From Vicugna vicugna (lineage: Eukaryota): a stretch of DNA of 64,000 bases. Positions 3,146 through 57,749 of the stretch are shown here, piece by piece (position 1 is the first letter of the stretch; each line of letters starts with the position of its first letter). The notes under the pieces were generated by a model. The model was not told where the DNA came from and ran no database searches. It was given only the letters and a program-made list of their open reading frames with translations. Position numbers and translations under genes: made by a program. Location of the stretch: assembly GCA_013265495.1 (NCBI GenBank), contig MU058059.1, positions 1,587,502 through 1,651,501 on the forward strand, read 5' to 3'.

Positions 3146-3421
3146 GATGGTGGTGATGATGATGATGGTGATGATGGTGGTGATGATGATGGTGGTGATG
3201 GTGATGGTGGTGATGATGATGGTGATGATGGTGATGATGATGATGGTGATGATGGTGGTGATGATGATAGTGGTGATGGTGATGGTGGTGATGATGATGA
3301 TGGTGGTGATGGTGGTGATGATGGTGATCATGATGGTGGTGGTGATGGTGGTGATGATGTGGTGGTGATGGTGGTGATGATGATAGGGATGATGGTGGTG
3401 ATGATGGTGGTGGTGATGACG
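3146..3421 (+). repeat. compound (GAT)n/(GGT)n trinucleotide microsatellite
   Basis: About 275 bp of interleaved GAT and GGT triplets. It produces the spurious poly-M/V, poly-D/G and poly-I/T ORFs. Confidence 0.97.
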
Positions 3422-3423
3422 AA

Positions 3424-3562
3424 AGCTAACTCACCTAGTGCTCACTATTTACCAGGCATTGTTCTAAGTATTTTACCTTGATTAACCCTTTTAATCCTCA
3501 TGACAACCTTTTGAGGTGGTATTATGATTATCCTCATTTTACAGGTAAGGAAACTGAAGTAA
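3424..3562 (-). mobile_element. MIR SINE
   Basis: MIR core in reverse (TTTAATCCTCATGACAACC...CATTTTACAGGTAAGGAAACTGAAG). Its 3' tail abuts the microsatellite. Confidence 0.85.
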
Positions 3563-30870: not shown

Positions 30871-31339
30871 AGCTGCCCTCTCTGTCAATTAATGAGGTGG
30901 GTCCTGCTGGCGTGACAGATAATTCTTCTTGGGTCTCTAGCAATCCTGCACATCTTTCTAGTAGAGGCACTAACTGCCTTTGTTTCAGACTATGTTTTCA
31001 AGGATGTTTGTACAGCAGTCTTGTACCACAGAGAGACAGTGTCTCTGCCCAGGCAACCTTGCTTAGTGCCTGGTATAAAAGAACTGAGTTCCTCATGCTC
31101 AAGGTTGCACTGCTGTATCCGAACCTGCTACATCTGCAGGTATCTCTGGCCCTCTCTGCACTGCCCTGTGGTCAGAACTGGTGCTTGGAGAACCCAAACA
31201 AATGCTAGCACTCCAGCTAAAGTATCGCTGTGAAAAATAAACTGCCCTTTGTCTCTGACCCGAGTCCCATGTCTTTAAAAGCATCCACGAAGTGGTGGCA
31301 GGCTAACCTAGCTTGAAAGAAGGGTAAAATGGAGGCCTC

Positions 31340-31455
31340 TTCACAGTTCTTGACAGGTGCTATTATCTCAATTATATAGACAGGTAAACTGAGGTTCAGA
31401 GAGGCCATGCACAGCCAGTAAAGGACAGAGGTGGGATTTAAACTCAGCTCTGCCT
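31340..31455 (-). mobile_element. MIR SINE interrupted by L1 (continues after 31751)
   Basis: GGTGCTATTATCTC...GGTAAACTGAGGTTCAGAGAGG...GGGATTTAAACTCAG; resumes as AAACTCAGGTCTGCCTCC after the L1. Confidence 0.75.
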
Positions 31456-31750
31456 TAACATAGAAAACAAACTTAAGTTACCAGGGGGGAAAGAGAATGG
31501 GAAAGGATAAATCATGAGTTTGGGACTAGCAGATACTAACTACTATATATAAAATAGATAAACAGCAAGGTCCTATTGTAGAGCACAGGGGACTATATTC
31601 AATATCTTGTAGTAACCTACAATGAAAGAGAATATGAAAATGAATATATGTATGTATATGTATGACTGGGACACTGTGCTGTACACTGGAAGTTGACACA
31701 ACAGTGTAAACTGACTACACCAATTTAGAAAAGAAAAAGCAAGGAAAAAG
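31456..31750 (+). mobile_element. 5'-truncated LINE-1 3' end with TSD
   Basis: AGAAAACAAACTT..GTTACC...GTAGAGCACAGGGGACTATATTCAATATCTTGTA, then an A-rich tail. 16-bp TSD AAACTCAGCTCTGCCT (31440-31455) / AAACTCAGGTCTGCCT (31751-31766), 15/16, at a TTT/AAA site. Confidence 0.92.
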
Positions 31751-31969
31751 AAACTCAGGTCTGCCTCCATCCAAAACATGGCCTGTACCCACTATTTCAT
31801 GAGTAGAAAGGGGCCAGATGAGAAAAGGGAAGGAAAATCGCCCATGGACTCCATGGAGATGATCTCGTGATTCCCAGAGGGAAGCAGAGAAAAGTTTAAT
31901 GCAGATCAGGGAACCCTCTGGGCTCCTGGCCCAAATCACTCGTCCAATCAGCTATTTTCGCGTGGATTT

Positions 31970-32420
31970 TGTAATGGACGCTGGGGCGCTCCACCCAGAT
32001 CTCCCCTTCAGGACTGAGATACTCTCGTCCCCGCTGCTGGAGGTATTAGCAGCTAAAGGCCCTCATCTGAGTCCCGCCCATGAACTGTCAGGCTGGAGAC
32101 TGCTGCCTTACCCAGAGACAAGCCCCATTCTGTGGGTCCAGCAGACAGGGTGGGGTGGGGGCAGGGCAGGAGCAGGAGCACATGATGTCCAGTGCCTTTG
32201 CTTCAAGGTGGGACAACTCTGTGTAACTCCAGGGCTTGCTGTGGGAGAGACTCAAATTTTCTGCCTTTTTGGCACCGACATCACAATTCAGCTCCTTCCT
32301 CTGCCCAAAGCTCCCTTCTGTCCCCCACAGTATTGACTTGAGTACCCTTCGCAAAAAATTTCCACCACACAATCTTAGCACACAAACTGCAGAGAATCTT
32401 TCCCGGGAACAGGCCTAAAG
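31970..32420 (+). mobile_element. LTR16-like (ERVL) solo LTR
   Basis: Start TGTAATGGACGCTGGGGCGCTCCACCCAGATCTCCCC, internal GCTTCAAGGTGGGACAACTCTG and CCTTCCTCTGCCCAA; resembles the LTR16 consensus as recalled. Confidence 0.6.
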
Positions 32421-34244
32421 CAGAGCTCATGCAAATCATGACAGAAAACAAAAGGCCATACAAAAAGTGTGCTTCCAAAGATTTTTGTGTGCTTTAAGTT
32501 ACAATTTTGGGTACCTGTTGGTTTAGGGAAAATCATTCGAAATATCACCTGTAAGCTCACCGAAATCACAGGGTTAATTCAAATTGTGAGAATTCCAGTA
32601 AAGGATGAGAAATCAGATTTATTAAGCATTACAGTTGTGACAATTATTCTGCTGTATGTTCACCAAATTGCTTTTTCTGACCTATTATTCTACTAATAAG
32701 CAAAAAGCAATAGGAAAATCATTAACTTATTATATAATGCCCTGATGGAAATTTTGAGTATAAGTGAATTTCTGTTTTCCCTTGAGATACAAATACTGTG
32801 ACTGTTTCATGGATTATGTAAATGGAACAGTGGGAACCATTTGCAAGTCACATTTAATGTGTCTGGGAAAAAGATATTAACCTCCTTTCCTACAGAGAGA
32901 GGCAAAAAGACTCAAGCCTTGTTGGAATGGAAAACTGGGGGTTTTGTGCAATCTCTCAAGAATAGATTTGGAGGGGGGAGTGGTAATGAATGCCCTGAAA
33001 TAATCTCCTTCCTTGTGATTTGAGAATGAAAAACCAGTGAGAACAAGGCCAGAGAGAACGAAGGCCAGCTAGGGCAGAACCAGATTCATGGGATGAATCC
33101 AACCTTTTGTCAAGTTATGTCTTCAGCCTTATTCCACCTACTCAAGGTTGTACAAACACATCTAGATCACGACTTTCCTAAGGGTAAAGTACTAGCATGG
33201 TTGGTCACTGTTTCTGATTTCAAAACTAAATGATGAACGAAGAACAGGGTCCCCTGCCCCAGATACATTTTGTCCCATTTGATAAGCAAATCAGGTTTTT
33301 GTCCTGTTGAGGGGAATTTAAATTTCAAACTGTGCTCAAGGGTGCACTGTTTCTTAATTGCATAAAAGGAAAATCAGCACTAAAATATTTTAAAGCTTTC
33401 TCTTTAAAAAGTCTTAAGACGAAAAAATGCACGTTTCTCATGAATTCATGCGTCATGTTTACAACTTTCATCCTTGTAATGCAACCAGTTGAACTAGTTA
33501 TTTTCAATCAAGAGAATGTTATGCAAAGTCCAATACTTGACTCAGTCATGTAAACAAACAAGGCAAGCGAAATGCTTCCAAGTATGCTGAAAATTTAGCT
33601 TTTCTCCTACATAAGGCAACAACCTTTAACTTGAGAATGAAGTTTCAGAGACAATAAATTCTGCTACACAAACATAAAGAAGTGTTTGGTTTAAACCCTT
33701 GCATAGCTTATCAACAGTTGCATGCAACCAGGAAAGCTGCATTGTGCTGTAAACAACTAATCCATTGCTTCATATTCCTGGGATCTTTCCTTCCAGTCAT
33801 TAGACCAAAAATGAGGTACGAGATTGAGCAAGTTTCTACAGAGGAGCAGCAAAAATTCCATCCACAGAGATCCCTAAGGTGACACCAAAAAGAAATTCTG
33901 GAAATACACTGTTGGAGATCCTTTTCTCTGATGAAATGAAAAGCTTCAACATTTTTGAAATCAGAGATAGACAAGCCTCTTTATTATTACCGAAAAGCAT
34001 CATCATTGCTCAACAATTTTCTGGCAGAGGGAACAGAGGCAAAAGGTTAGTCCAATGAAATTCAGGTGGTAAAAATGCAAAAGAGGGTTAAGGTCGGCAC
34101 TCTAACACAGACGGAAAGTCTAGCCTGTGTGTGTGTGTGTATGTGAATGATCAAGGACTTTTAATGAGATTTAAGATTCCAAAGTTCTCCTGAGAAGCAA
34201 AACGTACGTGAAATGCCTGATACAATCACTAGAACATGGAAAGG

Positions 34245-34573
34245 TCAGTACAAGTCAGTCTGTGACCATATACAGATGGAGGCAGTGCCTATCTGTCTGA
34301 GTGCCTGGGGTGGATTTACTACCAACAGGGATTGCAGCTATAGAAAATTCCAAGCAGAGTTCTTTGCTACCTGATGGCTCTTAGAGTCAATCCCCCTTAA
34401 AGACAGATACTTCAGAAGCTCATTAGGGAAAGAGTCTTTCTGCCTCTTCTGGGCTGTGCTCAGGGATCATTCGGGAGTCTTGGAAGCTGGGCAGAACCTC
34501 CCTAAAGGGAAAGTTTGAAAACAATATAGGGCAGGAGAAAGGGTGTGGGCTTCTCCCATGTGGGCGAAATAAG
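34245..34573 (+). repeat. left arm of long inverted repeat (core; weaker homology extends out to ~34193)
   Basis: Reverse complement of 35816-36152. Hand alignment gives ~21 substitutions plus a few indels; perfect 54-bp match at 34480-34533. Confidence 0.97.
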
Positions 34574-35815
34574 ACAGTGATGACTAATGCTGGATTTGCT
34601 GGTCCTTGGTGGAGAGCACAGTGGTTATTCAAAGTTGGATCCAGAGTGAAAGAGGGTATAGATGTACCCAAAATGTTATAAGGGGGTAGTTTCTTAAAAG
34701 AGATTGATTTTCCATCTCAAATCCATTACCAGGTGTGTGCCCACACAAGAATACACAGACCTTCCTGCCCTAGTTGGCTGCAAACATAAAAGGAAATGAA
34801 AACCAACCACTTTCATCTTAGCAAAGTCCTTCTCCTTATTACTTTTATTGCTTGGATTATGAATTTCAATAAATGCAAAATGCATTCCTAAGTCTAGAAG
34901 TCAATCCCCCAAAAGTTGTTTATCTAGAGTCAATAAAAATAATTTAATTCTAGATTCAATTCATTCTACTCTTGATTTGCAAAGGAGTAAACTGTGAACC
35001 ATAGAGATGGAGCTGATACGAGTAGGAAAAGCATCTAAAACTATTAAGTGACACAGAGGAAATTAAATCCTGGCTCACTTGATCCCCATTCAACGCTGTT
35101 CCTGTATCAGCATCCTACCATTCAGAAAACTGCAGCTCACCAGACAGCTTCATTTTGTGAAGACACTTTTGTCATGTGAAGCGACTGCTATCCGGGCAAG
35201 GACAGTTCACTGAATTTGAGTGTCCAAAGTAGATTTCCTCTAGACACAGGAAAGCCATCAGAAGGTAAAAGTGCTTTTCCTTCATCGATTAAATCTAAAC
35301 GCTCCCATTAGCACCATCCACCAGGTCCCCATGATGACAGTGAAGGCACTGCCAGCCTTTACAGATTACAATTACCCACATTTGGTATCTGTCTTAGAAG
35401 AACCCAAGGCTTCACAGTAGACTGAGGAAGGAAACAAAAGTAAGCTTTCCCCAAGTCCACAAGGAGAGTCAAGTGCTGACATCGCAGGTGATCAGTGACA
35501 TCAGTGAGATCCTATCTGGCAAGTGAAAAATGGTGACAACTGTCCCCCAGGGCTCTCTCCTGCCCACAGAGTTAGAAGCGTGCAACCTGCACAAACCTCC
35601 ATCACAAGGACACACCTTCTCAGTTCTTCTCAAACGACTCACTCGTACCTTATCTGGGGTCTCTGGTTTCTGAATGGGAAGCACTGAGGGAAAGACCCAT
35701 CTGAAGTGGAAGGAGAGTCATTCCTGGAATCCAGGCTATTCTTTTCAAAGTTCATTATTAGAATGTGTCATAAAAACATCAAAATCTGATGGACTTGTGT
35801 AAGTCTGACTCATGA

Positions 35816-36152
35816 CTTATTTTGCCCACATGGGAGAAGCCCACACCCTTTCTCCTCGACGTTGCCCTATATTGTTTTCAAACTTTCCCTTTAGGGAGGT
35901 TCTGCCCAGCTTCCAAAACTCCCAAATGATCCCTGAGCACAGCCCAGAAGAGGCAGAAAGAATCATTCCCTAATGAGCTTCTGAAGTATCTGCCTGTAAG
36001 GGGGACTGACTCCAAGAGGCATCAGGTAGCAAAGAACTCTGCTTGGACTTTTCTGTAGCTCAACTCCAACCTGATGGTGGTAAATCCACCCCAGGCACCC
36101 AGACAGATAGGCACTATCCATCTACACATGGTCACAGACTGACGTGCACTGA
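35816..36152 (-). repeat. right arm of long inverted repeat (core; weaker homology extends to ~36210)
   Basis: Example: TTTGCCCACATGGGAGAAGCCCACACCCTTTCTCCT pairs with AGGAGAAAGGGTGTGGGCTTCTCCCATGTGGGCGAA. Carries a 7-nt insertion near 35856-35863 relative to the left arm. Confidence 0.97.
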
Positions 36153-36340
36153 GGCCTCTTCATGTTCCGGCCACTGCATCACGTATTTCATGTACATTTC
36201 TTTGCATCGTCCCCATAACAACATGGTGCCTCAGGCAATATTATTAGTTCCATTTTCTAGAAAGTTTAGACAACTTGCCCAAAGCGACTGGAGACTTTGC
36301 ATCTGACTGTAGATGGCACAGTCTTAACTACTTGACACAC
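36140..36340 (-). mobile_element. MIR SINE (degraded), 3' end overlapping the outer right arm
   Basis: CACTGAGGCCTCTTCATGTTCCGGCCACTG...CCCCATAACAAC...TATTATTAGTTCCATTTT...CAACTTGCCCAAAG. Confidence 0.65.
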
Positions 36341-36956
36341 TGTCATTGGTACTGAGGGTCACAATCTCCTGATAGGTGACTGATTAAGAGTATTTTAACT
36401 CTTTGAAAAGAAGGCTTTGAACCTTCTACTGAGATGCTTGTTTCATACTATTTCCAGACAAAGTCACAAAAAACACTCAAGCAGAGCAAAGCCAAGAGCA
36501 GGAGTTAGTGTCTGAAAAGAGGAAAAGAAAGAGAAGCAGTAATTCTAGCCAGAGACCTGATTGTTAGTCCAAGTAACATGGTCCAGTCTTTTGCTTTAAA
36601 AAAAAACTTTCTAGAACACTTTAAAATGTACACGTTATATAGTCGGTTGATGACAAAACTTCTTTTAAAAAGGTCTTTGTCACGGTAAAGCTTTAAAAGA
36701 AATATATTCAAGACCTAGAAGGGCAGTTGTCTCATATCCTGTTTAGTCTCTAACACACTTGTTTGCCAAACACAAGGTTTAGTCTGCACATATCTAATTT
36801 GGGCAGCCGGTTGATGGTCTTTGAAAACATCTCAAAATCAAGTCGACCCAGCTGCTGGTTTCCAATCCTGCAATAATCCTCTGTGTGCAGAACATGACTT
36901 GCCAGGGAGCATGATGGAAGGGCATGGTATTCTTAGAGCAGACAGACAGCTACGTA

Positions 36957-37585
36957 TGAGCAGAGAAAGGGGGACACAGACCAAACGGCAGGAATTGGGC
37001 AGAAAGGAGAGAGACAGGCCAAACACAGGAACCATGCATCATAAAAGCACCAGGAGGCCCTGAGCAGAGTAAGAAAGGCAGGAACCTTTGGGCTGATAAG
37101 TGGTCACACTTTTTGGGATGATGAGTGGCCTAGAGGCCAACAAAGAAAGGTGGGAAAAGGCAGAAATCTCCACTGTCGGAATGTAACCTTTTGCTCGTTA
37201 GGCCCTCATTTCAATAAAATTAGCCTTCCAGATTAGAAGTACCCATCGTGCGCCAACACCATGACACTTTCGATCCAGACTAAATAAGGACAAAAATCCC
37301 TCTTCCCCTCAGGAAGGTGGAGTTGGGATGAAAATCAGGAAATACGAACCCAGACCCTTCCCTCCCTAATGAATATTCCACCCACTCATTTTTACACCCT
37401 ATGTAACCAACTTGCCAAAGAACTCAGGGCAGCCACTCACCTGAGCCTGCCCTCTCTCCCCCTGAGAGTGCACTATCCATCCCTTAATAAATCCCCACTT
37501 TACTTTCTTAACCTCCACGTCTCATCTCTGAATTCTTTCCGAGATGGCACAAGAACCTGGACGCTGGCTACATCTACCAGCAACG
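36957..37585 (+). mobile_element. probable solo LTR (ERV1-like)
   Basis: ATGAATATTCCACCC, then TATA-like CCTATGTAA (~37398), AATAAA (~37485-37490) and U5-like TCTGAATTCTTTCC...AAGAACCTGG...CAGCAAC. The 5' boundary at TG 36957 is inferred; the TSD is imperfect. Confidence 0.7.
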
Positions 37586-40008: not shown

Positions 40009-40447
40009 TGTTGCCGCAACCGGACTCTACCCCGAAAATGATTTGAGATTTGGAGGCAGGGTTTTGGAAGAATTAGAAAAGAACAGCTTTATTGCTTTGC
40101 CAGGCGAAGGGGAGTCACGGCTGGCTCATGCCTTAGATTGTGAATTCACCCCTCTTGGAGTTGGGGTCTTGAAGTTTTATAGGAAAAAACTGGATGGAAC
40201 AGGAAAGGTGAGAACAATCAGGGCACTTTCCAGGGTGCTGCTGCCTTCCCCTTAACCTCCAGGAATCTTCCTGGTGTCACAGGGGAACTGCAGAGGGTCT
40301 TTCCATTCTTCTGAGATTATTGGCCCATTACCTTCTTCCTGGAGCAAAGCCTCTGGGTTAAAACTATTGTAAAGAGTGTCAGGGAGAAGTTTGGAGGTTA
40401 CTAAGCATGAAAGCAGTAAGGGAGGGAAAGCAAACTGCAAGATTTCT
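40009..40447 (-). mobile_element. 3' LTR, missing the first ~65 nt of U3 and the polypurine tract
   Basis: Minus-strand TATAAAA 40181-40175 and AATAAA 40093-40088. Homology to the other LTR stops at ~40447. Confidence 0.88.
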
Positions 40448-41092
40448 TAGAATCAGCAGTTTTAACAGCTTTAGCATCAGGACTTTTAAATCTTTTTCTT
40501 TTTTCTTTTTTTTTTTTTTTGCAGAGAGAATCAATTTGTTTTGCACTAGCTTATTTTTAAAAGCCATATACTTACTAAAATTCTCTTAAATTAGGCCAAT
40601 TCCGATTAAACATAAAACTCTTCTCAGGGTTCCTCTTTTATAAACCTCCCATTACTTTCTGTATCCATATGAGTTTGTCCCTTATTATTTTAGTAGCTTT
40701 AATTACTTACATTATAATTTTAACCCTTAAAAGCCTTAACGCTCTGGCAAAAATCAAGAAGCAAGTAATTGTGAATTAGCTGTCATACCAGCATTTCCTG
40801 ATTAGAAACTTATGCTTCTGTAAGTTTTTTCCTCCCAAGAAGGTAAAAAGTAGGTAAACTTAGACCTTCCCAGCAATTAAGGTTTCAGTATTTTATAAAT
40901 GAAGTAGACAGAGAGTTCTCTTCATTTAACTTAGTTTCAAGTCACCAAAATCTGGAGAAACAACTTTAGGTAGACATTCTCAAAACAATAATTATTCCTA
41001 TAGAGTTTACCTTAAAAAAAAAAAGTCCTTATTTTGTTTACTATTAATTTTCTTTAAAGTTTTTTTCACACTGAGTTACCTTCCTTGCTGAA

Positions 41093-41336
41093 AAATGTGC
41101 AACAGATATAAGGTCTTATTTGACCTCCAGTAAGTCTAAGTACAACAGAAGTATTATACTTAACGTTGATGATTCTAAAGATGTCTCTGTATTAATTAAA
41201 CCAACAAGCTTAAGAAATGTGCAACAGATATAAGGTCTTATTTGACCTCCAGTAAGCCTAAGTACAACAGAAGTATTATACTTAACATTGATGATTCTAA
41301 AGATGTATCTGTATTAATTAAACCAACAAGCTTAAG
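41093..41336 (+). repeat. 122-bp tandem duplication within the ERV internal region
   Basis: 41093-41214 and 41215-41336 differ at 3 positions. Confidence 0.97.
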
Positions 41337-42346
41337 CTAGATTTAGTACCAGATATTGATTTAGTACTGGAAGTTTCCGAGGTCATGTGAATCTGAAATT
41401 TATTTTGATTGTTTTTCTTTATATTTCTGAACATTCATATAAGCACTTAATTTTCTTTAAGCCAATTAAATAGAACCATTTTACGAATTAATTTGGCAGT
41501 ACCATATATTCGTGACACACAAACACACAAAACACAGAGACCTCAGTGTTTCCACTCCGAAATTTTAGCCATGAATAGGGTACAACAATGTAAAACCCAT
41601 CAGTTACAAAAGAGGTTGGATTCAAGGTGGGTTTCTGGCAGATGGAACAAATCGAAGTCACCTGTCTAGGTGGCTAAACCTTGTTACTAAGATCTATGAA
41701 AGAGCCAAGATTTCTATTTGTCTTTAACGAGTCAAGTTCAAAATTATTAACCCCTTTCTCAAAATTTGCATGTAAAAAAAAGATGGGGAGATTAGGGTTC
41801 CTGAAGACCAAGTAGAATATTTGTATCTCAAAGGCTTTGTAGTTTGACTAGTGGGTCAGGATTTTTCCTAAGGGAGTGTCTGATGGAACTGAAACAGTAC
41901 CGCCCATTCGTGCGCACACAACACGAAATTCAAACCTCGGCCAGCAAATGGAGGCCTCAAAATTCAAAGGAGGCACAAATTCAAACTTCAAAGTCAAAAC
42001 AACAGCTTCCTAGTTTCACTAGGCCCGAGACCGCCAACCAACCCGGGCGGGTGAAATGGGACGTCGTCTCTCAGGGAAAGGCCCTGACGAACTGGAGTGT
42101 CCCCCGCATTAGGGAGGCCTGGAGAGAGTCGGAGGGGCCTCGGTCGCCCCGGAAAACTCACCTAGTCCTTGCCAAGGAGTCACGGCGTCCCCGGCAGCGC
42201 TCTTGTCTCTCCTGCGTTTCCAAGCAGCCAGAGGCCTGACTGAGGTTGGAAGAAAGAAGGAAAAGAGTCCAGAAGCAAAAAGGCCTTCGCAGCTGCTGCT
42301 CCCAGCTTCCTCTGCTTCCTTCTTACCGCCACGAAGTCCCGCCTCG

Positions 42347-42420
42347 GACTTCCGCCTGGAAGCCCCGCCCCAGACTTCCGCCTGGAAGCCCCGCCCATTG
42401 GCTACGGCGGCCCACGTGGC
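42347..42420. promoter_or_regulatory. CpG-rich promoter-motif cluster in the ERV leader
   Basis: GACTTCCGCCTGGAAGCCCCGCCC twice with period 26 (ETS core GCGGAAGT on minus, Sp/KLF GC box), ATTGG (CCAAT) at 42397-42401, CACGTG at 42413-42418. Function is inferred from motifs only. Confidence 0.45.
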
Positions 42421-42608
42421 TCAGACGCAGACCCAATACTCTCCTGCTCCAGATTTCCCCAGCGATCTGGCCTCCTCGGCCTCCCCTGACCCTCAGCCAT
42501 CCCAAGGGAGGCTGGCACAAAGGTTGCCTTTAGAGCGTCCGGTCAAGCCAAGGTGTCCAGGGGTAGGAAAGAGGAAAGGGAGTCCAGCCCAGCGCTGGGT
42601 CACCAAGG

Positions 42609-43114
42609 TGGTTGCCGCAAAACCGGCCTCTGTGCTTCAAAAATAGATTGAGGCTGGGACACAGAGTTGTGGGAGAAAAAGTACAGCTTTATTGCTTTGC
42701 CAGGCGAAGGGGAGTTACAGCTGGCTCATGCCTGAGAGAATGTGAATCAACCCCTCTTGGAGCTGGGGTCTTGAAGTTTTATAGAAAAAAACTGAATGGA
42801 ACAGGAAAGGTGAGAACAATCAGGGCGCTTTCCAGGGTGCTGCTACCTTCCCCTTAACCTCCAGGAATCTTTCTGGTGTCACAGGGGAACTGCAGAGGGT
42901 CTTTCAATTCTTCTGAGATTACTGGCCCATTACCTTCTTCCTGGAGCAAAGCCTCTGGGTTAAAACTATTGTAAAGAGTGTCAGGGAGAAGTTTGGAGGT
43001 TACTTAGCACGAAAGCAGTAAGGGAGAGAGAAAGCAAATGGCAAGATTCTTGGTCAGAAAGAATTAGCAAACAGGTTTAGCGTCAGGCAAGTCAGTTCGT
43101 TTCCTTCTCCTTCA
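42609..43114 (-). mobile_element. 5' LTR, complete (~506 bp)
   Basis: Minus strand starts TGAAGGAGAAGG (43114), has TATAAAA 42783-42777 and AATAAA 42693-42688, ends ...GCGGCAACCA, and is followed by the PBS-like sequence. Confidence 0.9.
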
Positions 43115-54116: not shown

Positions 54117-54305
54117 GGCAGGAGGTACAGCTCAGTGGTAGAGTGCCTGCTTAGCATGCACAAGGTCCTGGGTTCAATCCCCAGTGCCTCCATTAAAAAA
54201 AAAAAAGTTGAATAAAAGTAAATAAATAAGTAGACTTAATTACTCCCCCCCAACTTTTTTTTTAAAGTAAAAAAAAAAAACCCAAAACAACAACAACAAC
54301 AGCAA
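54117..54305 (+). mobile_element. tRNA-derived SINE (camelid Vic-1-like)
   Basis: Head GGAGGTACAGCTCAGTGGTAGAGTGCCTGCTTAGCATGCACAAGGTCCTGGGTTCAATCCCCAGTGCCTCCA with Pol III A and B boxes, then an A-rich linker and A/(CAA)n tail. TSD AACTATACTTGTGT (54102-54115) / AACTATAATCGTGT (54306-54319), 12/14. Confidence 0.9.
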
Positions 54306-56455: not shown

Positions 56456-57749
56456 GGCTTCCCCAAATTCCCTGCCAGCAGCCGTGGATGGATGCTAGTT
56501 CTCTGCACAGTAAGAAGTTTCACTCTGAAACAGAGATAAGGAGAAAGTTCAAAGAGAGTTCGCTATAGAGTGCCTCAAAACAATTTATAGGAGCTGGAAG
56601 GAGAAACGAAAGGGAAGACAGAATCAGAGATAAGCAGACTGCTGACGGGAGTGAAGTCCTATTACGAGGAGAGTGAATCGGTGGAACGGTTCTGGCACCG
56701 ACATGACTTCAGATCTCAGTTGGGAACAGCCATCTCAGAAGTGATGCGACATGAGATTCGGGAACAGTAGAAAAACCTGCACCGGGCTCCTCCAACGCAT
56801 TTATAGGCCTAACAAAAGCATTCACTGTCACTCACAGCACTGAGCAACTTTGCTGCAAGGAGTCCCCGAGCGTCGTGATGGTACAGGAACTACCTGGACA
56901 AGTGTTTGGCCACAATTCAATTTAAATTGAATAAACACCTGCTGAGAATATAATATAATTTGCCATCCCCCCACTCACCTTCACTAACTGGCATGAACAC
57001 CATCTCCTTATACATCCTTCCCCACCCCTTCCCCCCAGAGAGGAGCACAGAACTCTCCTCCCCTTAGGACCGGGCAAGCCCCAAGCCCACATGTCGGGGA
57101 GGAGGTCCGAGTAGAGACCTGTGTGGAAGAAAACAAAAGGACGGCCTTCCTGACGGTTTTCCCAGCCCTAGGTTTGGTGCAGCATTAGCTCTTCTCTCCA
57201 GCAGGAAAGACAAGAATAATCAAACTAGACAAACTAAATTTCATAGCAATTGATTTTTGCTGAACTCACGTATCCTTGGTCTTACTCTATCATCTATTTC
57301 AAAAGACTTTACCATCCTTATGTTAAAAGACTTAGGGTAATCATTTGGGTCTCGGTAATTTCTTTTACAGTAAAAGTGAAAGCATATTCAATATAATGAA
57401 TCAAAACAATCTTAACATCCTTTCACTTGGCAGCGACAGGGTCTTCATCATGATCTACGTGCTTCCCACGTAGGTAAATAATGACGAGGAAACGTTAGGA
57501 GCGTGGCTGGTAGCCATGTATTTTAAGTGCTTATCCTTGAGCAATTTTTCATAAGGACTATTCAATTTCATTTCCAAAGGAAATGAGAAAATAAGATTCT
57601 TACTATCCAAAGCTAAGGGCGTCATGCAATGGTTTACTTAACAGTGTTCAGGATACTATATACCTATCTTTTTAGTTAGGGAATGTGCAAATTCCCCAAG
57701 AAGAGAGGGGCATGGCACAAAAAGAGCCTGTATAGATGTCTGTTTCAAT

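Follow-up and report, generated by a model that had tools for sequence, protein, structure and literature searches.

A ~385-bp inverted repeat in non-coding DNA of Vicugna vicugna, best read as an old local duplication with partly re-homogenised arms

Introduction

How does ordinary mammalian DNA come to carry two long, mutually complementary arms around a spacer of more than a kilobase, and does the RNA hairpin that such arms could form have any function? This question is raised by an inverted repeat in the middle of a 64,000-nucleotide stretch of Vicugna vicugna DNA (assembly GCA_013265495.1, contig MU058059.1, positions 1,587,502 to 1,651,501 of the forward strand; hereafter the window, within which all positions are numbered). 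A preliminary description of this window had singled out the repeat as a possible structured RNA locus or long-range pairing element and as the best candidate for something new. Here we analyse its extent, the polarity of its copies, the distribution of differences between its arms and its folding potential. We propose that it probably arose as an old local inverted duplication through repair or template switching, that its inner part was later converted from arm to arm, and that the RNA duplex is a by-product of a structure that is now probably neutral.

Extent and reality of the inverted repeat

The inverted repeat is real. Realignment of the segments reported as reverse complements, 34245-34573 and 35816-36152, gave 305 matches, 21 substitutions and 14 gap columns (89.7% identity), and a recount of the spacer between them returned the same 1242 bp. 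The arm length of ~330 bp given in the preliminary description, on the other hand, was too short. The full local alignment, which pairs 34200-34580 with 36199-35810 reversed, has 343 identical columns, 34 mismatches and 7 indels that together take up 17 gap columns, and the arms reach the limits listed in Table 1, with a duplicated length of ~385 bp and 1236 bp between the full arms. No homology was found past 34200 or inward of 34577/35812, where the extension score was 0. The arms align with a score of 529, whereas none of 30 Markov shuffles of 33500-37000 exceeded 36. The inner stretch of the left arm that most resembles its partner contains perfect runs of 37, 53 and 33 bp and one 7-bp indel. 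The core, of ~316 bp, has no copies in the 64-kb window other than these two. The arms had been described as apparently unique sequence, which does not hold for the outer ~60 bp of each, as these are part of a dispersed MIR-like relic.

The 34 mismatches comprise 24 transitions and 10 transversions. Because this pattern is rich in transitions, we regard the arm differences as real divergence and not as the product of mis-assembly, and such a normal transition excess, together with the 7 indels, is unlike a mis-assembled copy. Besides, of the words sampled from 33200-37200, a share of 0.92-0.93 is present in 16 DNA sequencing runs (from 8 studies and under 3 organism labels, one of them possibly the source). 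If one arm were missing, the share could not exceed ~0.905, a comparison that with 423 sampled words is on its own only suggestive (p 0.05-0.07). An assembly artefact is thus hardly credible.

Table 1. Coordinates of the inverted repeat and associated features in the window
Feature	Position	Strand	Remarks
Left arm, derived (acceptor) copy	34200..34576	.	Reverse complement of 35813-36199; both ends frayed, alignment runs to ~34580
Right arm, donor copy	35813..36199	.	From alignment and relic polarity
Outer part of left arm, clipped piece of the donor's MIR-like relic	34200..34260	-	14 mismatches in 61 columns
Inner stretch of left arm most like the right arm, candidate recent conversion tract (conversion inferred)	34435..34576	.	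4 mismatches in 145 columns (to 34580)
MIR-like relic	36124..36345	+	First ~70 bp inside the right arm, rest beyond; profile match 36124-36268; end 36345 read by eye
Possible faint MIR-like relic in spacer	34965..35091	+	Profile E 0.044, below inclusion threshold
Spacer	34577..35812	.	1236 bp of ordinary non-coding DNA; no second copy in window
Candidate exon-like piece in spacer	35616..35700	-	Pyrimidine tract and AG, then GT donors at 35649/35616, giving 52 or 85 nt

Polarity of the two copies

The outer ends of the arms indicate which copy came first. Old dispersed repeats occur elsewhere in the window, and we tentatively take them to be MIR-like. A profile built from 15 of these repeats elsewhere in the window matches the outer end of the right arm and the DNA beyond it (E 1.1e-4). 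The left arm carries only the first ~60 bp of this relic, in mirror image; past 34200 the left piece has no significant continuation and scores at chance level against the other copies. As the relic continues only beside the right arm, the anatomy shows the right arm to have been the donor; the left arm, a clipped copy, is the acceptor.

The two outer pieces are moreover too alike to have been inserted independently. When 14 of the relics were aligned together, the fifteenth, a short copy at 31335-31460, being left out, the outer segments of the left and right arms are identical in 47 of 61 columns, against 33-49% for the 14 other relics. The 44 columns with a usable consensus include 20 in which all are the same, 14 in which the arms share a non-consensus base, 7 in which only one arm deviates (4 right, 3 left) and 3 in which all differ. 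Considering both this identity and the 14 shared non-consensus bases, the outer left piece was inherited by descent. An inverted pair of short interspersed elements (SINEs), which the preliminary description had already set aside, was rejected here as well: the arms are not independent copies of a dispersed SINE, the core having no other copy in the 64 kb and the outer relic piece being shared by descent.

Identity gradient and age

The similarity of the arms increases toward the spacer. Counted from the outside in, mismatches occupy 18 of 82, 12 of 150 and 4 of 145 columns (22%, 8% and 2.8%), with the best change point at 34283 (permutation p = 0.001). The difference between outer part and core persists when CpG columns are removed (p = 0.018), and so does the gradient within the core (14/157 vs 4/155, p = 0.026).

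At a rate of 2.2e-9 substitutions per site per year, as used for small duplications in mammals (PMC2671141), the outer 61 columns would correspond to ~62 million years (My; 33-109), and the core, with a distance of 0.066, to ~15 My (9-23). A single event would hardly yield both ages, which leaves three possibilities: an old duplication whose inner parts were later overwritten from arm to arm, selection that has kept these parts alike, or an outer part that represents an older seed. The gradient is best read as the trace of an old copy in which conversion between the arms has restored part of the similarity.

Transposon hallmarks

The arms lack the marks that an inserted element would be expected to leave. 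In agreement with the preliminary description, no target-site duplication (TSD) of 5-10 bp or of the TTAA form was found for left ends between 34150 and 34270 combined with near-symmetric right ends; the 2-bp TA form lay outside this test, and TSDs may decay with age. The reported lack of a transposase remnant was borne out in a Pfam scan of 24 of the 58 listed stop-free frames, in which the sole match was an unrelated, sub-threshold one to Gemin6_C (E 0.095, 12.9 bits against a cut-off of 33.4). The ends of the left arm carry no poly(A/T) tail of at least 5 bp, the longest run being 4 A at the outer end. Both frayed ends show a short, imperfect overlap, which at the outer junction looks microhomology-like by eye.

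Since the relic is mirrored at both outer ends and no direct repeat of 5-10 bp or TTAA accompanies it, transposon ends are disfavoured. The arms end inside the MIR-like relic on both sides, which insertion does not produce, and only two copies exist in the 64 kb. We therefore consider it very improbable that the arms are the terminal inverted repeats of a DNA transposon, or that a low-copy repeat resembling a long terminal repeat (LTR), so far unrecognised, inserted here twice. What speaks for the latter is that the right core, 35813-36136, starts with TG, ends with CA and is flanked by GACTCA and GACTGA, a 5/6 match that was noticed post hoc and is probably due to chance. A solo-LTR reading of the core was scored low and given little weight, because the left core lacks the TG/CA flank match and AATAAA is absent from both arms. 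A solo-LTR-like sequence, recognised by eye from its TGTAA start, AATAAA and CA end, lies at ~37180-37570, ~1 kb to the right of the donor arm.

RNA duplex potential

The claim that the arms are able to form a long RNA hairpin was sound. Folding computation predicts 344 pairs and -616 kcal/mol for the plus strand, and 360 pairs and -648 kcal/mol for the minus strand, with longest helices of 98 and 64. Over the whole arms 89% (plus) and 93% (minus) of the bases are predicted to be paired, and over the core 93% and 95%. A single arm alone folds no better than shuffled sequences (z 1.66). The paired shares fall below a class treated in a human survey as likely MDA5 ligands, namely long double-stranded RNAs (dsRNAs) of >300 bp and >96% paired.

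Transversions, which break a pair in every case, account for 10 of the 34 mismatches and, within the core, for 7 of 20. They are thus not depleted in comparison with a pair of direct repeats in the window that served as mismatch control (12 of 35). This neutral-like share and the 7 tolerated indels support neutrality. The control repeats, at 40010-40481 and 42611-43087, are ~470 bp long, differ by 35 mismatches in 460 columns and are LTR-like by eye.

Two RNA sequencing runs contain 0.30 and 0.29 of the words of the locus, and two guessed ones 0.10 and 0.08. These shares are no evidence of expression, because assemblies of 850-940 million letters could carry them as background or from a relative. 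No Rfam family reached its gathering score at the locus, where two matches were at chance level (E about 3). Overall, we judge the repeat to be structurally ordinary; the chance that its RNA duplex is selected is small. The earlier suggestions of a structured RNA locus and of something new are not supported. Local duplications of such size and spacing have already been described (PMC2671141).

Proposed origin and alternative explanations

We propose that a DNA end that had broken or stalled near 34200 was extended by ~385 bp copied, in reversed orientation, from a template 1.2-1.6 kb to the right. The route suggested by the anatomy and by the described class of such events would be synthesis-dependent repair or a replication template switch, followed by a return to the end's own template. 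With the right arm as donor, the copying ended within the MIR-like relic that continues only rightward. Judging by the outer 61 columns this would have been an old event, after which the inner parts were presumably overwritten from arm to arm at least once, through either gene conversion or fold-back copying. An RNA spanning the locus would, by computation, fold into a duplex of ~350 bp and likely be a passive ADAR substrate without a selected function.

The described class is that of the repair-mediated proximal duplications (RDs) of Pace, Sen, Batzer and Feschotte (2009; PMC2671141). These are 50-619 bp long (mean 162 bp), have a donor within 5 kb and >50 bp away (mean distance 1.2 kb) and lack a poly(A/T) tail; the minimum counts are 824 in human and 202 in cow, an artiodactyl, and an example in ACSBG2 demonstrates that they can be inverted. 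The repeat described here resembles them in length (~385 bp), in the distance set by its 1236-bp spacer, in its tail-free ends and in having an identifiable donor and acceptor. It differs in exceeding their mean length, in having been recognised from one sequence, where the cases of Pace et al. were found as insertions breaking annotated repeats and confirmed by the empty sites of relatives, and in an identity that rises toward the spacer, a feature not described in the available part of their account.

Several observations weigh against this origin. Pace et al. see divergence tracking age as if neutral and do not use the term gene conversion, and the gradient is therefore an addition that we make to the class. 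Breakpoints, age and conversion are all inferred from one sequence, because no empty orthologous site or outgroup was seen. Besides, the transition mismatches favour G-U pairing in a minus-strand RNA by 17:7 (two-sided p = 0.064; one-sided 0.032), and by 10:3 in the core, while the base skew of 31800-37150, -0.076 (rough standard error 0.028), points to a minus-strand transcript.

These last two observations would be expected if the inner ~300 bp of an old inverted copy had been held complementary for the sake of a minus-strand transcript, with the duplex serving in editing, nuclear retention, production of endogenous small interfering RNA, or the looping out or circularising of the exon-like piece. 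The stronger minus-strand fold and the helix lengths fit such a role, as do the much greater similarity of the core relative to the outer part and the position of the minus-strand exon-like piece ~110 bp inward of the right arm. However, an exon-like piece in a spacer of this size has a chance expectation of ~21% (~1 in 5), and the skew of the whole window is just 0.004. The G-U excess is weak, and transcription-linked mutation would give it as well: an A-to-G excess on the transcribed sense strand, with a ratio of 1.44, has been reported (PMC1559705), and the observed bias then has p about 0.17. The undepleted transversions, the 7 indels and the lack of an Rfam match also argue against selection, and a survey of the human genome found conserved dsRNAs to be short and weakly paired (mean -42 kcal/mol) and most of the predicted dsRNAs to lack editing (bioRxiv 10.1101/2025.01.24.634786). 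We thus consider a selected duplex unlikely. Its more specific form, in which a repair-born inverted copy of ~60 My was co-opted, the inner ~300 bp being selected in a minus-strand transcript whose duplex is edited or pairs the splice sites of the exon-like piece, is improbable.

The gradient could also stem from a single event if the left site had possessed a MIR-like piece of its own that primed invasion of the right relic, so that ~300 bp of unique DNA were copied 10-20 My ago next to an older pair, now the partly converted outer 60-80 bp. The age estimated for the core agrees with this, and the expansion of arms from shorter imperfect repeats is known in yeast (PMC8604942). It is nevertheless a similarly unlikely explanation, as independent relics in the window match the outer segment in 33-49% of columns and not in 77%, the arms share 14 derived bases, the left piece neither continues past 34200 nor exceeds chance similarity to other copies, and the gradient within the core persists without CpG columns. 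Alternatively, staggered breaks or a template switch of long range may have inverted the spacer, leaving inverted duplicates at both ends, and possible later re-flips by recombination between the arms would also homogenise them. A four-point template-switch model produces inverted repeats (PMC7954356), inversion of the spacer between arms is documented in yeast (PMC8604942), and recurrent inversion occurs between large human repeats (PMC3961182). We regard this as distinctly improbable, since the sequence holds no sign of an ancestral orientation of the spacer and no relic lies across a junction. The longest perfect run between the arms is 53 bp, and such a run is short for present-day ectopic crossover.

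Comparison with other inverted repeats

The proposed duplication by repair or template switching, with later conversion, finds parallels beyond the RDs. Reversed copying from a nearby template is known to make or perfect inverted repeats and to flip spacers, both in apes (Walker et al. 2021, PMC7954356) and in yeast (Abraham and Hazkani-Covo 2021, PMC8604942). Unlike the present ~385-bp arm and 1.2-kb spacer, those events have short arms and short spacers and extend over tens to hundreds of bases, and the inversions treated in another study measure 17-33 nt (PMC8755829). Homogenisation of inverted-repeat arms is documented in yeast (PMC8604942) and in the worm, where Zhao et al. (2007, PMC1803023) found arm similarity out of step with age and ascribed it to conversion; their evidence is cross-species and ours comes from one sequence. 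With arms of >30 bp, identity of >85% and a spacer of <2 kb, the repeat falls within the definition used by Lirex (PMC5414712), although its long spacer places it far from the closely spaced repeats that the same source calls recombinogenic. Its arms fall just short of the 400-nt cut-off of LIRBase (PMC8728187).

As a potential dsRNA, the repeat resembles those predicted by dsRNAscan in human in having non-repeat inverted arms able to pair. That survey predicts about half a million non-repetitive dsRNAs, of which 4,597 are edited, and also gives ~2 per Mb, figures that are not reconciled; it names long dsRNAs with contiguous helices of >30 bp as preferred ADAR substrates (bioRxiv 10.1101/2025.01.24.634786). 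The present locus differs in being longer than the median edited case (144 bp), in being under 96% paired and in being known from DNA sequence only.

Most likely, then, the repeat is of little importance, as a mammalian genome contains hundreds of such small local duplications. It may have modest value as a clean test case, in which the outer relic fixes the donor and supplies an internal clock, and with three or four orthologues the identity gradient could tell gene conversion apart from selection for RNA pairing. If selection were true, the locus would record how non-repeat DNA gave rise to a long duplex for editing or splicing; if co-option were true, it would represent a traceable long-range RNA pairing element formed from unique DNA in one step.

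Genomic setting and other features of the window

The window is mammalian non-coding DNA. No host gene was identified: the 80 stop-to-stop frames of at least 90 amino acids looked non-coding by eye, the viewing of the sequence by eye covering 24000-59999, and a crude splice-site scan returned 24 rows at 12 loci with no exon chain. No orthologue was found with an 18-nt motif common to both arms: metagenome contigs contained 55 matches and viral contigs 3, and 0/55 and 0/3 of these extended beyond 24 nt, in what is a very weak search for mammalian DNA. A literature search did not surface the locus, from which we do not conclude that it is unpublished. A tRNA search found none, and the only simple repeats in the repeat search were a (TG)10 tract and a 9-bp repeat.

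The top exon-like piece in the splice scan, at 56979-57117 on the minus strand, scored 18.2 against 13.9 for the next and might belong to a minus-strand transcript. A tRNA-like match at 54121-54192 (51.5 bits) is followed by an A-rich tail and is probably a tRNA-derived short repeat. On the minus strand, 18831-18933 is a full-length match to U6 (110.7 bits) that abuts a repeat piece 93% identical to 222-369, and 18683-18933 as a whole looks like a U6 retrocopy chimera. A long trinucleotide array of the GAT/GGT type at 3146-3425 opens several low-complexity frames. Finally, ~2.1 kb lie between the ~470-bp direct repeats used as the mismatch control, including a CpG-richer part at 42001-43000, and the stretch that they bound contains a head-to-tail duplication of 122 bp with 97.5% identity at 41093-41336.

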